Source: Candidatus Latescibacterota bacterium
GTDB taxonomy: Bacteria; Latescibacterota; UBA2968; UBA8231
NCBI GenBank assembly: GCA_965242865.1
Contig: CBDETK010000013.1
Location: 5,455,427-5,519,426, forward strand
DNA: 64,000 nucleotides
Reading direction: 5' to 3'
Position 1 is the first letter of the stretch; every line of letters starts with the position of its first letter. Both the position numbers and the translations under genes were made by a program. Positions 21,775 through 26,202 of the stretch are shown one piece after another. Below the pieces are notes generated by a model. That model ran no database searches. It worked only from the letters and a program-made list of their open reading frames with translations, and was not told the DNA's origin.

Positions 21775-21855
21775 GGATTCTCTTTCCGTTCCTGCCGAGG
21801 CGGGATGGTGCTGGCACAGCTAAACCTGCGGTTCGGCGTCGTCATTGGCCGGTGC

Positions 21856-22065
21856 TTATCCGCGCTCCAGTTCGGCCGGATGCATGCTGAGATATTCACG
21901 AACCTCCAACTGCATTCGGTCGATCTCGGCGAGAAATCCCGCCACCGAGCCTCGGTAATTTTCAGGATGGGTTTCCACATTGCGTAGATGGGCTATTTGA
22001 CGCTGGAAATGCGCGATTCGCCCCAGAGTGACGTCGAGTTCGCGATCGTTTGCAATCATGGTCAT
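21856..22065 (-). CDS. small helical protein (69 aa) coupled to the upstream NTase
   Basis: Its ATG overlaps the NTase stop (ATGA at 22062-22065). Predicted helical, with no motif. Confidence 0.45.
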   Translation of the reverse strand: MTMIANDRELDVTLGRIAHFQRQIAHLRNVETHPENYRGSVAGFLAEIDRMQLEVREYLSMHPAELERG

Positions 22066-22502
22066 TCCCCCGTGATTTCAACGATGCCACGTTCAGTACC
22101 ATCGCGTTTGAGTTGCCAATCTTCGATGGCGGATTCTTCGCCACCGATGGCCGCCAAGCGGCGAACCCAGAACACACTACATCCAAAATGATCTTGGGCC
22201 GTTCCGTGATAGAACAGGAGTCGGGCTTCGCCGACTAGTGACCCCATATCGAAATTGTCATCCATAATCATGAAGATGTCCACATCGTTGGGTTCGTATT
22301 TTTCAGTAATAAACGAGCCGAATACGATGAATCGAGCTAGATAGCCAGTTTGCGCCGCGATCTGATAGATGCGTTCGAGGCGCATGGCAAGCAGCTTTCG
22401 GCGATGCGATCCCGTTCCAAAACGGCTGACTGTTTCGGCGAGCGAAGCCGTATAGACGCCAAAAGGAAGATCACCCATTGCGGTAAAGTCAGGTAGGGGC
22501 AT
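22062..22502 (-). CDS. minimal nucleotidyltransferase-fold protein (pol-beta superfamily)
   Basis: 146 aa. 'FIVFGSFITEKYEPNDVDIFMIMD' is the GS...DxD NTase motif. Confidence 0.65.
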   Translation of the reverse strand: MPLPDFTAMGDLPFGVYTASLAETVSRFGTGSHRRKLLAMRLERIYQIAAQTGYLARFIVFGSFITEKYEPNDVDIFMIMDDNFDMGSLVGEARLLFYHGTAQDHFGCSVFWVRRLAAIGGEESAIEDWQLKRDGTERGIVEITGE

Positions 22503-22642
22503 AGACCCTCCTGTTGATGAGAACCATTCTAATGAGACAGTCGGTTAGATCGTGCATCCCCGCGGCCAGCCCATTCCATCTTTCATCCCCCAAGGCCGTC
22601 GCTATACAGATTCCACGAAGATAAACAGTATTATTAGTTTAA

Positions 22643-25600
22643 TCACTCAGTTCCTGATTTTTGAACAATAAATGCTTTCATACCACCTGCATAGAATTGA
22701 ATTTGAACTTTATGACTTGACGATATACTAGTATCTATCATTGAATTTCTTTTTTTTAAGAAAAGAGGTATCTTATACTGAAGATCTATAATACGCACGT
22801 ATAATCTTTTTTTATATTTGACTATAACAGCATCAAATATCTCAGGATTACCTTCATCATCTTTCCAATAATCTTGCATACATAAGCTAGTTCTAAAACG
22901 TTGCTGAATTTTTCTCATGTGTCTCCTAAAATAAGAGAATTTTCTGTTATATGCTTCTGCGATACCCAAAAAGTAATGATATCTCATAGGGTCTTGTTCA
23001 AGTATAGGCCCATTAGAGCGAACTAAATCAAATAACTTAGATCGGCTGGCACTATGGTGTAAGTTACGCCCATAGTGCTGGAACAATAGCTTTGATACTT
23101 CATCTAAGTGAGTATATTTTTCAAGTTCACGCACCTTTGCACCTAAAGCATCCTCATCATTTTTCTGGGAGTAATAATAGAAGTATAAAATTAGGGCGTA
23201 TGGCTTTAAATCTTCTTTTTTATACAAGTCACTTATAAAATTGATATATTTTTCATCATTAGCAGAAGAAGAATGATGCTTTTTTCTATATCTGGCTTCT
23301 ATTTCGGCAATGGTTTCAATCCCTTCATGAAGCTGTCTTTTCGCTCGATCTAATAAATCTTCAATCGAAATTATACTACGCAATTCTGTTTCTTGGGTAA
23401 GAGAAAATGTTTCTAAATACCATATCTCAAACCGTAAGTATTCTCGGAAACTGTATATACTAAAGGGATCTTCTATCATTTTTATATAAAATAATTCCCT
23501 CGCTTCGTCAATATAAGGTTGTACTGCACTATGTATAACTTGCTCACGATCTAGCAACTGGGCTAGTTTAAAATTGAGAACTGCTCGTCGATGTGTTAAT
23601 CTGTGACTTCTTCGATATAAGAAACTTTCTGCATATATGATACGTTCGATGCCACGTTCTAAAGATTTCTGAGTTCCTCGGTATTGTAAATTTGTAGCGT
23701 AGTGAAGGTTGAAATGAGGATCATCAGAAAATTCATTTGCACATATATCATATAGATTATCAATCTTAGATTGTGTAAATTCTTCTGCCGTTATCATTGC
23801 TTTTAGTATATCTACAATTAAACGGGAATTATGAGGAGTATAAGTTAATTTTTTAAATATTTTTTGGTATTCCACAAATCTTTTATCTGAATCACTTAGA
23901 TACATCTCTATAAGTAAGTCTGAAATTACCGGATGACGAGTTCGAAAATATAGGTCGGGTTCATCTCCCGATATATTTTTTTCTTCTTGGACCAAAATTC
24001 CTTTTGCATCGTATTCTATGACGTCACGTTTGAATGTACCCCAATCTTTAGACACCAGTTTCATCAATAAACTGGAAGGCATTAAAATTTTGAATCTATA
24101 TAATAATGATGTATATAGAAATGACTCCTTAGCCTTTTCTGATAGTTGTTCATATGCGCTCCGTAATATCTGGTCATGATGTCCATCTGTAACTATGGAT
24201 AGCAGAGACACAAAAGCATCTCCTTTATAATCTCGAACAACCGTAGAGGCGAGAGAGTTTCTTTCTTTTTCATCTCTGACAGTGATAATCTTTGAGTCAT
24301 CTAATTTCTTAATCAGATCTGATGCTTCTTTTTTGTTAAAATTAGTATTGATCTCCAGTTGATGCAGGTTGGGATATGATCGGTTATGGGTTAATTTTTG
24401 TAGGATATTTTCCCTTATGGGAACCAGCATCACTATATTAGATCCAGAGAGTTGTTGTATGCTGAGATTCGACCGCAATTCAATCATTGATTTAAAGAAA
24501 CTGTCTACCTCACATTCATCAAATAGAAGCATGATATTTTCAGTGTCAACAGCACTGATTAGTTCACATAAATCTACTTCTCTAATATCTTGAGGCTCTA
24601 ATATCTCAAATACTGCTACATCTAAGTCAGAGTCAAGAATACTATGGACTAATCTATAGCAGAAAGTCGTTTTGCCGACACCATAGGATCCAGTTATTGC
24701 AATAATAGGAATTACAAATTCTTCAGAATTGAAAAATTGTTCTAATTTATTGATTATCTCTTTTTGACAATCTAATCTTATTACATCATAATTCTGCTTT
24801 ATCGCAAAATAAGATGGTCTTTCTCCCGTATAAAATTGCTCTGGTGAAATGTATTCAAATCTGGTATGTGGATTAATCTGGACAAGACTGCTTCCAAGCC
24901 TCTTAATAAGCCTATTAGATATATTTATGGGAGAACTGTCTTTTTGGCGAAACTGCGGTTTTCGCCTTCTTATAGCTGATTCTTCACTCGATTTTTCCCA
25001 ATCTTCATATTTTTGATAGAATTCAGAAGCAGTGCATTTTATAATTCTAATACTGCTGCTCTCAAGGTATGGTAGCATATCTTCCTGTATGGTGGGATCT
25101 ACCAATAGTATATCTCTCTTATTTCGGTAATTATATCGATCAAAACGATCAAGAAGAAATTTAGCAAACGGATCTCTAAATGAGTATCCAATCACGAGAA
25201 GTTGAATACGGGGCGAGATGTGTTCTAGGGCCTGTAACACTATCTTGTAAAAACCGTTAACGGATTCAAAATCTCTTGTTGAAAAAATGAATGGATATTT
25301 GGCTCTATCACTAATACAACCATTTAGCTTAATGTATTTTATCTCATCGTTTGCTGGATTGTAATGATATTCATGCAAATTTTTTGCAGGCTTCAGGATT
25401 TTATTTTCGTCCGATGTACTAAATACTCTATCAAAAGCCTTCTCAACTATAATATCCAAATTGGTCGTAATGATCTCTTTCCAAGGTAGGCGAGCAATTG
25501 TAGTATGAAATGCAGTGGGTTCTAGATTTCTAAGACATTTTTCTACTATATCATCAAACTCTTTGCGATCAAATTGAGGATTTCGACTAAGCACATCAAC

Positions 25601-25807
25601 ATATTCAATAATACTGTCGGTTTGATAACTATTTCCAGACTTTGCTTTGTGATAACCCATTAATTGACTACTTAGATACACATTATCATCGGTTATAGAA
25701 GCACCTGCGCCTAAGAACAGAATCGTATTACCCGATATGATATTAGGAAATATGTCTCTTCGTAAAGTTTCACTTCCTTTTTCTTGGACATCTGTTATAT
25801 GGTACAT
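22643..25807 (-). CDS. SIR2-like (SIR2_2) domain fused to a P-loop STAND-type NTPase and a long helical C-terminal region
   Basis: 1054 aa. N-terminus: 'ILFLGAGAS', 'ITTNLDIIVEKAF', 'IKLNGC' and 'VIGYSFRDP' (SIR2_2 pattern). Middle: Walker A 'ITGSYGVGKTT' and Walker B 'IMLLFDECEV'. Very AT-rich: line 22681 is 19/60 G+C, against 47/60 for line 20761 in the methylase. Confidence 0.82.
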   Translation of the reverse strand: MYHITDVQEKGSETLRRDIFPNIISGNTILFLGAGASITDDNVYLSSQLMGYHKAKSGNSYQTDSIIEYVDVLSRNPQFDRKEFDDIVEKCLRNLEPTAFHTTIARLPWKEIITTNLDIIVEKAFDRVFSTSDENKILKPAKNLHEYHYNPANDEIKYIKLNGCISDRAKYPFIFSTRDFESVNGFYKIVLQALEHISPRIQLLVIGYSFRDPFAKFLLDRFDRYNYRNKRDILLVDPTIQEDMLPYLESSSIRIIKCTASEFYQKYEDWEKSSEESAIRRRKPQFRQKDSSPINISNRLIKRLGSSLVQINPHTRFEYISPEQFYTGERPSYFAIKQNYDVIRLDCQKEIINKLEQFFNSEEFVIPIIAITGSYGVGKTTFCYRLVHSILDSDLDVAVFEILEPQDIREVDLCELISAVDTENIMLLFDECEVDSFFKSMIELRSNLSIQQLSGSNIVMLVPIRENILQKLTHNRSYPNLHQLEINTNFNKKEASDLIKKLDDSKIITVRDEKERNSLASTVVRDYKGDAFVSLLSIVTDGHHDQILRSAYEQLSEKAKESFLYTSLLYRFKILMPSSLLMKLVSKDWGTFKRDVIEYDAKGILVQEEKNISGDEPDLYFRTRHPVISDLLIEMYLSDSDKRFVEYQKIFKKLTYTPHNSRLIVDILKAMITAEEFTQSKIDNLYDICANEFSDDPHFNLHYATNLQYRGTQKSLERGIERIIYAESFLYRRSHRLTHRRAVLNFKLAQLLDREQVIHSAVQPYIDEARELFYIKMIEDPFSIYSFREYLRFEIWYLETFSLTQETELRSIISIEDLLDRAKRQLHEGIETIAEIEARYRKKHHSSSANDEKYINFISDLYKKEDLKPYALILYFYYYSQKNDEDALGAKVRELEKYTHLDEVSKLLFQHYGRNLHHSASRSKLFDLVRSNGPILEQDPMRYHYFLGIAEAYNRKFSYFRRHMRKIQQRFRTSLCMQDYWKDDEGNPEIFDAVIVKYKKRLYVRIIDLQYKIPLFLKKRNSMIDTSISSSHKVQIQFYAGGMKAFIVQKSGTE

Positions 25808-26078
25808 CTCAAATCCTTATAGTCTATATTGCGTTATAGATGGAAGTCATTGGGAACGGAAAAACGTATGATGACGCCCTTGTTCCTCGTGGTTCTACTT
25901 GGGAAATAAGTCTAGATTAGCCCATTCCAACGCTTTTTCTTCCCACAATCGAATTCGGCGTTTCGGACCACTTCTACTCAAGAAAACCTATCGCCCGCTC
26001 GTCCAAATATATCTATCATGTTCAAAATATCGTATCCTCTACACTAGGTCAAGTGTCTCCATAGTCGCCGCTATCGCA

Positions 26079-26202
26079 CCCACCACAAGTGCAGCGTACT
26101 CGGATGCCCATGCCGAATCTACTTCTCCCGCGCCGCGTGCTTGGAAACCTCGGCAATGGGAAAATCGACTTCAGCGAGACACTTGCATTCATGAGGGATC
26201 AT
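26079..26202 (-). pseudogene. relic of the DUF1156 methylase 5' end (first 41 codons, with a premature TAG)
   Basis: 124 nt align without gaps to 21651-21774, with 15 mismatches by manual count. The relic reads [27 protein letters not shown] against the genuine [32 protein letters not shown].. Its ATG overlaps the HEPN-1 stop (ATGA). Confidence 0.88.

Follow-up and report, generated by a model that had tools for sequence, protein, structure and literature searches.

The question raised by this locus is how the beginning of a methylase gene came to be left behind at a distance from the gene itself. The locus lies in a 64,000-nucleotide (nt) stretch of DNA from a Candidatus Latescibacterota bacterium, which is called the window below and in which all coordinates are counted; all genes in the part considered here are on the minus strand. 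By PADLOC models, the locus is an Hma (helicase-methylase-ATPase) defence system, and its methylase gene is hmaB. A second copy of the hmaB start, here called the relic, stands directly after the HEPN-1 gene, and the 4.4 kb of DNA between the two copies consist of a stretch without open reading frames (ORFs), a SIR2-STAND gene, a DUF6932 gene and an ORF of 69 amino acids (aa), p69. Most likely, the relic stayed behind on the entry of DNA from another Hma locus through two joints, one illegitimate and the other homologous. Both parental arrangements (MNT1-HEPN1-hmaB and SIR2-STAND-DUF6932-p69-hmaB) exist in related loci, and there is microhomology at the joint.

A sequence-only reading of this DNA had described an ungapped duplication of 124 nt with 15 mismatches. 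The same values were obtained when 26079-26202 was aligned directly with 21651-21774 (124 nt, no gaps, 15 mismatches), and self-blastn of the window then returned 26075-26202 against 21647-21774 as an ungapped match of 128 nt (87.5% identity, E 2.8e-39). The relic was also matched by an nhmmer profile of the hmaB start over profile positions 1-129 (E 1.9e-37). As had been noted, codon 28 of the relic is a TAG stop, and the ATG of the relic (26202-26200) shares two bases with the TGA that ends the HEPN-1 ORF (26201-26199), in the form ATGA. The segment therefore has the marks of a gene relic, namely similarity to only a part of a gene, truncation and a disabling TAG, and it is likely to be a non-functional pseudogene fragment, the displaced 5′ end of an earlier hmaB copy. 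The overlap had further been taken as evidence that HEPN-1 was once coupled to the methylase. The overlap is real, but it carries little weight on its own, because every hmaB begins with ATGAT(C/T) and an ATGA overlap is thus open to any in-frame upstream ORF.

The two copies have changed in different ways. Private changes in the relic are R4H and R8C, and the relic retains the family-consensus residues E5, K21 and H22, where the resident hmaB has V5, Q21 and Y22, which are relaxed-looking changes. There are 7 synonymous differences between the copies, and the longest perfect run common to both is 25 nt.

Related loci were taken from two sources. L001-L080 are 80 loci that were obtained when the first 341 methylase residues were searched against a set of genomes with one for each species, and L081-L094 were added through protein searches with SIR2-STAND and HEPN-1 and through contig look-ups. 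The closest loci are in metagenome-assembled genomes of Candidatus Latescibacterota, with up to 93% aa identity. An ancestral junction of HEPN-1 with the methylase had been predicted, and it is present, uninterrupted, in two loci that have the orthologous MNT1-HEPN1 pair. L086 8719-9520 aligned with window 26876-26075 at 89.9% identity and L081 12113-12939 with window 26901-26075 at 87.3%; in both, MNT1-HEPN1 leads straight into a full-length hmaB, and the region of the relic aligns with the first 128 nt of the real gene. HEPN-to-hmaB junctions were further observed in L005, L006, L009, L035, L055, L078 and L091. A metagenome scan with HEPN-1 returned two short contigs only, one of which (L084) carries a 54-nt stub.

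The second parental arrangement was found in L082, where the non-coding flank, SIR2-STAND, DUF6932, p69 and the hmaB start are present at 86-88% nt identity and there is no stub. L082 4138-7665 and 7812-8798 align to window 26062-22530 and 22525-21543, respectively, and the genes upstream of the L082 block are different ones (RHH, PIN and a YhcG remnant). The homology begins at window 26062, within 12 nt of the end of the relic. The claim that cargo had entered at the upstream edge of the methylase is supported by this locus, in which the block exists as a unit behind other genes and without the stub. In L081 and L091 the order of the modules is reversed, so that SIR2-STAND through p69 come first, followed by MNT1-HEPN1 and then by hmaB. 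In L001, MNT1 is fused in frame to the last 22 codons of DUF6932, and in L090 the stop codon of HEPN1 is fused to the p69 start through the pentamer ATGAT. These two closest relatives are, as read from their fusion points, independent deletion derivatives of a window-like gene order.

The joint itself can be placed within a few nucleotides. The bases that follow the relic (TGCGAT...) are the native left flank of the SIR2-STAND block, as determined from L091 and L082. The native flank in these loci is ...GCGGTGGGAGCGATGG..., as against ...CACTTGTGGTGGGTGCGATAGCGG... in the window. The window joint falls within a 6-nt microhomology, GGTGGG, which is hmaB nt 119-124 and is also present in the native flank of the block in L091. 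The 124 nt given earlier as the extent of the hmaB-derived sequence agree with this, as the hmaB part ends at nt 119-124 and is followed by the SIR2-STAND flank.

These arrangements suggest the following course of events. A resident locus with the order MNT1-HEPN1-hmaB would have recombined with a second Hma locus that carried SIR2-STAND-DUF6932-p69-hmaB. One crossover would have been homologous and located inside or beyond hmaB, and the other joint, within the start of the resident hmaB, would have been illegitimate and mediated by the GGTGGG microhomology. The resident gene would have been replaced by the incoming hmaB, while the first 124 nt of the resident copy would have stayed attached to HEPN-1. 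The stub would then have decayed through the TAG at codon 28, R4H and R8C, and stub and hmaB start would have become direct repeats of 124-128 nt that flank the cargo. The direction of the transfer and the homologous crossover are what we infer; the parental arrangements and the microhomology were observed. Because the operon is packed stop-on-start, an upstream cargo gene is kept whole only by a joint inside the anchor gene, here hmaB, and this would explain why the stubs start at the start codon. With no more than 25 identical bases in a row between the copies, deletion of the cargo through the repeats would be possible but inefficient, and the two deletions seen in relatives (L001, L090) used microhomology instead.

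Four observations weigh against this course of events. The exact stub/SIR2-STAND joint is found in the window only, and no second assembly has it. No identity break was detected along hmaB in comparison with L001, L002, L081, L082 and L086, and the right-hand homologous crossover was not located. That the relic and the resident copy come from separate hmaB lineages is not clear: the identity of the relic over the 128 nt is 89.8% with the L001 hmaB, 88.3% with the L002 stub and 87.5% with the resident hmaB, and in a pairwise comparison of 16 hmaB starts and stubs plus L086 the relic is nearest to the L001 hmaB, the L007 hmaB and the L002 stub, in a segment that is too conserved to separate the relic from the resident copy. 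Finally, the stubs in L002 and L092 end at most 4 nt from that of the window and then give way to unrelated DNA, which a random illegitimate joint would not predict.

The last of these observations may point to a preferred site. In the window, in L002 (~8971) and in L092 (~1330-1340; a 2.1-kb contig that may be chimeric), MNT1-HEPN1 is followed by a stub that ends within nt 120-124, and the DNA after the stub is the SIR2-STAND block, a 292-aa ORF and an mreB-like fragment, respectively. In a neighbour-joining tree of MNT1-HEPN1 (no bootstrap), L002 groups with the loci that have the uninterrupted junction and not with the window, which suggests independent joints and hence a possible hot spot. 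The joints may cluster at the TGTGGTGGG motif at hmaB nt 116-124. The 8-mer TGTGGTGG, a Chi-like candidate, was observed 37 times against 18 expected, a count that is confounded by the selection of the loci for hmaB and was set aside. A DNA hairpin near nt 125-160 was rejected as the cause of a break hot spot, as five hmaB sequences fold worse than their shuffles.

Stubs of this kind are not peculiar to the window. An nhmmer search of 81 loci with a nucleotide profile that covers hmaB nt 1-300 gave 22 extra hits in 16 loci. Two of them are whole second copies of hmaB (L021, L073), and the other 20, in 14 of the 81 loci, are partial 5′ stubs that end at profile positions 32 to ~281. All extra hits are on the hmaB strand, and with one exception in each case they start at profile position 1-2 and lie upstream of hmaB. 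Mirror-image 3′ stubs of hmaB, with the stop codon kept and a variable 5′ cut, were observed downstream of hmaB, and 5′ stubs of hmaC and 3′ stubs of hmaA show the same behaviour. The loci that bear stubs belong to Latescibacterota, Nitrospirales, Chloroflexota/Dehalococcoidia, Acidobacteriota, Rokubacteria and Methylacidiphilaceae.

Three cases illustrate how the stubs are arranged. In L008 (6689-7096) and L053 (8885-8973), an hmaB 5′ stub directly adjoins an hmaA 3′ stub, which is exactly the product expected when two Hma operons are joined out of register; in both loci the stub ORF ends on the start codon of the cargo gene that follows. L094 (1695-11063) contains six hmaB 5′ stubs in 11.5 kb, each directly after a cargo gene. 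The cargo before these stubs is an AlbA_2 remnant, HEPN, AlbA_2, HEPN and a nucleotidyltransferase (NTase), and it includes a duplicated MNT-HEPN-stub32-YhcG unit. In the third case, the whole module at L003 5022-6359 is absent from L005 (5660-5692), and the breakpoint lies inside the 26-32-nt stub repeat, so that the stubs themselves serve as crossover sites. A broader proposal, which is put forward tentatively and with the balance against it, is that the stubs are the linkers of a recombinase-free cassette system, in which short conserved copies of the ends of hmaB, and also of hmaA and hmaC, act between the modules as portable homology arms and direct repeats, and whole cassettes are excised, deleted, re-inserted and shuffled from one Hma locus to another by homologous recombination, with joints that may cluster at TGTGGTGGG.

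The arrangement in the window could also have been produced in situ. Unequal crossing-over would have duplicated in tandem the segment that starts upstream of the cargo and ends at hmaB nt 124, after which the two copies would have lost different modules, and no foreign Hma donor would be needed. Duplication and loss could interconvert the gene order of the window and the reversed order of L081 and L091; the window already contains one tandem duplication, that of the MNT-HEPN pair, which favours such an event, and the stub/stub abutments in L008 and L053 are equally a signature of tandem duplication. However, two further precise deletions would be required. The 61 nt before the ATG of the window hmaB are common to L082 and L001 and are not shared with L081, and the synonymous differences together with the consensus E5, K21 and H22 of the relic fit two alleles better than one that was copied. 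Duplication in situ is therefore considered unlikely.

A Campbell-type insertion is a further candidate. In this case a circle with the cargo and hmaB nt 1-124, excised earlier in another genome by recombination between a stub and hmaB, would have integrated into the start of the resident hmaB through one homologous crossover. Cargo flanked by direct repeats is the exact product of such an event, and the gain or loss of a module between L003 and L005, with its breakpoint inside the stub repeat, is of the expected kind. The initial joint of stub and cargo would still demand an illegitimate event, the block in L082 has no stub at its left edge, and no circular form was observed. A perfect match of about 25 nt is at the lower limit for RecA-dependent recombination, and the longest one between the window copies is only 25 nt. 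Taken together, these points make insertion of a circle quite improbable.

If the stubs were functional elements, they could be leader mini-ORFs, translational-coupling adaptors or regulatory RNA or DNA sites. In 6 of ~18 junction classes, the stub mini-ORF is coupled by ATGA to both the preceding and the following gene, as in HEPN-stub32-YhcG (L003, L093, L094) and stub173-MNT (L004, L005). This proportion is about equal to that expected from reading frame by chance (1 in 3), and the lengths of the stubs vary from 25 to 281 nt. The relic in the window is interrupted by a TAG, the ~270 nt after it contain no ORF, and there is no downstream gene to which it is coupled; no Rfam family match was found anywhere in the window, and the DNA folding of the region is weaker than that of shuffled sequence. 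A function is thus very unlikely, and a common leader shared by unrelated genes was rejected on the same grounds, the chance level of coupling and the uncoupled relic. An assembly artefact, with the contig chimeric at the conserved hmaB segment, is scarcely credible, even though the exact joint is unique to the window and L092 with its similar stub end might itself be chimeric, since copies that are only 87.5% identical are not a collapsed repeat, similar stubs occur in the chromosome-level assemblies L002, L003, L005 and L008, and L001 and L090 independently imply an ancestor with the gene order of the window.

The entry of DNA from a second Hma locus, which we favour, can be compared with what is known of Hma and of other modular loci. 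Hma was first named in PMC8565338, and embedded genes have been reported in 62.7% of 1,485 Hma systems (Payne et al., bioRxiv 10.1101/2024.01.29.577857). The route by which cargo enters was not addressed by Payne et al. (10.1101/2024.01.29.577857), whose text contains none of the words 'recombination', 'remnant' and 'truncated' and speaks only of a 'genomic sink'; that study left out loci whose hma genes are pseudogenised. The window resembles the loci of that study in having cargo between co-oriented hma genes (Ppl, DRT4, MNT-HEPN, ABC-ATPase with PIN-like genes, PDC-M63A), and it differs from them in that hmaA is lost and hmaB is frameshifted. The architecture of cargo within Hma is thus already known, and the gene-end stubs are a footprint of the embedding process.

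Arrays with truncated genes have also been described for effector systems, where the process is called sequential displacement and resembles what is proposed for the window. In the effector-immunity arrays of the Vibrio cholerae type VI secretion system (T6SS) and in orphans of Rhs and contact-dependent inhibition (CDI) systems, modules are added by homologous and by homology-facilitated illegitimate recombination, and old modules are retained beside truncated gene fragments, which gives stacked arrays, according to the summary of Kirchberger et al. 2017 in PMC8189183. There, the truncated gene is a polymorphic effector and the retained neighbour is its immunity gene. Both kinds of locus have several co-oriented truncated copies of the anchor gene that bound modules (two hmaB 5′ stubs and three 3′ stubs in the window, six stubs in L094). 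Unlike the effectors, the Hma anchor is a conserved methylase that is 73-93% identical in aa sequence across phyla, the stacked units are whole unrelated defence systems, and stubs are found at both ends of each anchor gene.

Homology-facilitated illegitimate recombination, seen in the transformation of Acinetobacter and pneumococcus, combines one homologous anchor with one microhomology joint. In the window, hmaB would be the homologous anchor on one side, and the 6-nt GC-rich microhomology joint is on the other. The window differs in that its joint falls within the recipient's own anchor gene, part of which is duplicated, and in that recombination of this kind is proposed for it from sequence comparison. 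Duplicated gene ends are also left by the integration of prophages and islands, at tRNA 3′ ends or in icd with e14 and phage 21. There, the incoming replacement end keeps the target gene whole, a diverged partial copy is left beyond the insert, and tandem accretion gives several copies. The window likewise has a replacement gene end that would have been brought in and a diverged partial copy on the far side. In contrast to such sites, the cargo has no integrase or recombinase (Pfam and PADLOC scans of 21775-26074), stub lengths range from 25 to 281 nt, and the joint is a microhomology and not a common core. A site-specific integrative element was rejected for the lack of a recombinase domain in that interval and for stub lengths that are not fixed.

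Embedding in Hma, BREX, DISARM and type I restriction-modification operons has served the discovery of new defences. The stubs indicate that recombination by way of the conserved anchor genes stacks cargo from different Hma loci, and they order the events, with outer stubs as the older junctions. They also show later loss of modules, through the stub repeats or through microhomology deletions. With simple nucleotide profiles, the origin of embedding becomes surveyable over thousands of loci, and our observations in the window suggest that anchor-gene ends could locate cargo where the anchor system itself has decayed. The coordinates of the features are listed in the table.

Table. Features of the Hma locus in the window, with the evidence for each
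Feature	Coordinates	Strand	Evidence and remarks
Relic (stub), first 124 nt of hmaB	26079-26202	-	Alignment, blastn, nhmmer; last 6 nt GGTGGG (26079-26084) are the microhomology at the joint
HEPN-1, 131 aa	26199-26594	-	Pfam HEPN 6e-26; homologues 131 aa long
MNT-1, nucleotidyltransferase partner of HEPN-1	26581-26895	-	Pfam Polbeta/NTP_transf_2
Non-coding left flank of the SIR2-STAND block	25808-26078	-	Conserved as far as window 26062 in L082 and window 26084 in L091
SIR2-STAND gene, 1054 aa, GC 0.336, candidate defence cargo	22643-25807	-	Pfam SIR2_2 and nSTAND_NTPase5; PADLOC ThsA-like SIR2 N-terminus; 209 homologues
DUF6932 NTase-fold gene, PADLOC candidate PDC-M63A	22062-22502	-	Pfam, PADLOC
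69-aa partner ORF (p69)	21856-22065	-	94% identical to L001 9716-9922; ATG overlaps DUF6932 stop
hmaB 5′ part (DUF1156 methylase), 390-aa ORF	20602-21774	-	Pfam DUF1156 2.3e-23
hmaB 3′ part, other frame, 625-aa ORF	18863-20740	-	72% aa identity to L002 HmaB residues 349-990
hmaC (DUF499 AAA+ ATPase)	10429-13173	-	PADLOC HmaC 1.6e-93 over residues 1-842; Pfam DUF499
hmaA helicase 3′ remnant, 225 nt	31676-31900	-	Comparison with relatives; inside 123-aa ORF 31728-32099
Degenerate ~24-nt hmaB start stub, directly after the stop of AlbA_2 copy 2	27668-27691	-	Orthologous 37-40-nt stubs in L002, L004, L081
hmaB 3′-end stub, profile positions 250-305	17555-17610	-	blastn, profile
hmaB 3′-end stub, profile positions 168-304	17105-17214	-	blastn, profile
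hmaB 3′-end stub, profile positions 275-306	15206-15237	-	Profile

The block between the two copies has the content that the sequence-only reading had given it: the NTase with its 69-aa partner, the SIR2-STAND gene and ~270 nt of non-coding DNA are all present. The part without an ORF is 267 nt long (25808-26074), and a promoter scan gave a weak promoter-like site at 26024-26052. The overlapping ORF 21771-21980 was considered as the 69-aa partner and rejected in favour of the ORF with the match in L001. Exact-sequence look-ups with the window methylase ORF and the SIR2-STAND gene returned no record.

SIR2-STAND has a GC content of 32-34% in all five contexts in which it was found (the window, L081, L082, L083 and L091), amid DNA of 54-60% GC, and the copies in these contexts diverge by 12-25%. 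Low GC is a stable property of the gene and was rejected as a sign of a separate or recent insertion. In L081 and L082 both DUF6932 and p69 accompany the gene; in L091, which has lost most of DUF6932, its companion is p69. At L083 3776-7162, a 75%-identical SIR2-STAND stands in a non-Hma neighbourhood with an internal hmaB fragment (profile positions 74-188) after it, as though the gene had departed from an Hma locus with a piece of the anchor gene.

The Hma system in the window is a decayed and incomplete one. The methylase had been read as intact, which did not hold: the loss of 25 nt between 20755 and 20756 puts hmaB out of frame, and every relative is without that deletion. The deleted 25 nt are flanked by the near-repeats CGGCATTAT and CGGATTAT. 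HmaB is a DUF1156 DNA adenine methylase of ~990 aa. The window methylase has 90% aa identity to the L002 HmaB over residues 1-344 and 72% over residues 349-990, and the full-length relatives in L002 are recognised by PADLOC as HmaB (7.6e-115, methylase) and HmaA (4.9e-174, helicase). The hmaB of the window is probably a pseudogene, present but inactive, judging by its frame. The hmaB of L001 is also truncated, at 512 aa. A full hmaA, which encodes an SNF2 helicase of ~1150 aa, is at the corresponding place in L002, L081 and L086, and apart from the remnant it is absent from the window, where its place is taken by an AlbA_2 gene and the DRT4 reverse transcriptase. Loss has gone further in other loci: in L088 and L089 (9393-9514), HEPN1 is followed only by about the last 70 nt of hmaB, and in L082 (8568-8950) 232 nt of hmaB are joined to the final 60 nt of hmaC. 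Nearly the whole Hma system is deleted in all three, and in each the next sequence is a conserved adh_short flank.

Between 13302 and 34930, all ORFs with domain hits are on the minus strand and lie between the hmaA remnant, hmaB and hmaC, so that the window has co-oriented genes between hma genes as is characteristic of cargo embedded in Hma. The cargo comprises Ppl, DRT4, two AlbA_2/HATPase_c_4 genes, two MNT-HEPN pairs, SIR2-STAND and DUF6932, and further an SDH-type protease and ABC-ATPase with PIN-like genes. The start stub after AlbA_2 copy 2 is an older AlbA_2/hmaB junction. At the downstream edge of the methylase, where stubs of the anchor gene had also been reported, blastn and the profile recovered them: the three 3′ stubs, all on the downstream side of hmaB, retain the stop codon and form the boundaries between the SDH-protease, ABC-ATPase/PIN-like and AAA_21 cargo modules.

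Several repeats were observed among the cargo. The two MNT-HEPN pairs are a tandem duplication (26210-26908 and 26967-27665, 78.6% identity over 701 nt), and a short degenerate copy of the hmaB start is found upstream of each MNT. The AlbA_2/HATPase_c_4 genes (28505-28924 and 34511-34930) have 82% nt identity over their first 420 nt, and the DRT4 gene, the helicase remnant and the Ppl gene lie between these direct repeats. The 209-aa AAA_21-like ORF at 14622-15255 matches two pieces that are ~600 nt apart in L001, L002, L003 and L007, and the window copy thus has an internal deletion. Outside the island, a family of diverged direct and inverted repeats of ~50-200 nt is present at 183-557, 37030-37885 and 41288-42252. 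The copies at 37030-37885 are probably coding repeats, as the counterpart in L086 and L088 is annotated as TPR/FG-GAP/UnbV_ASPIC.

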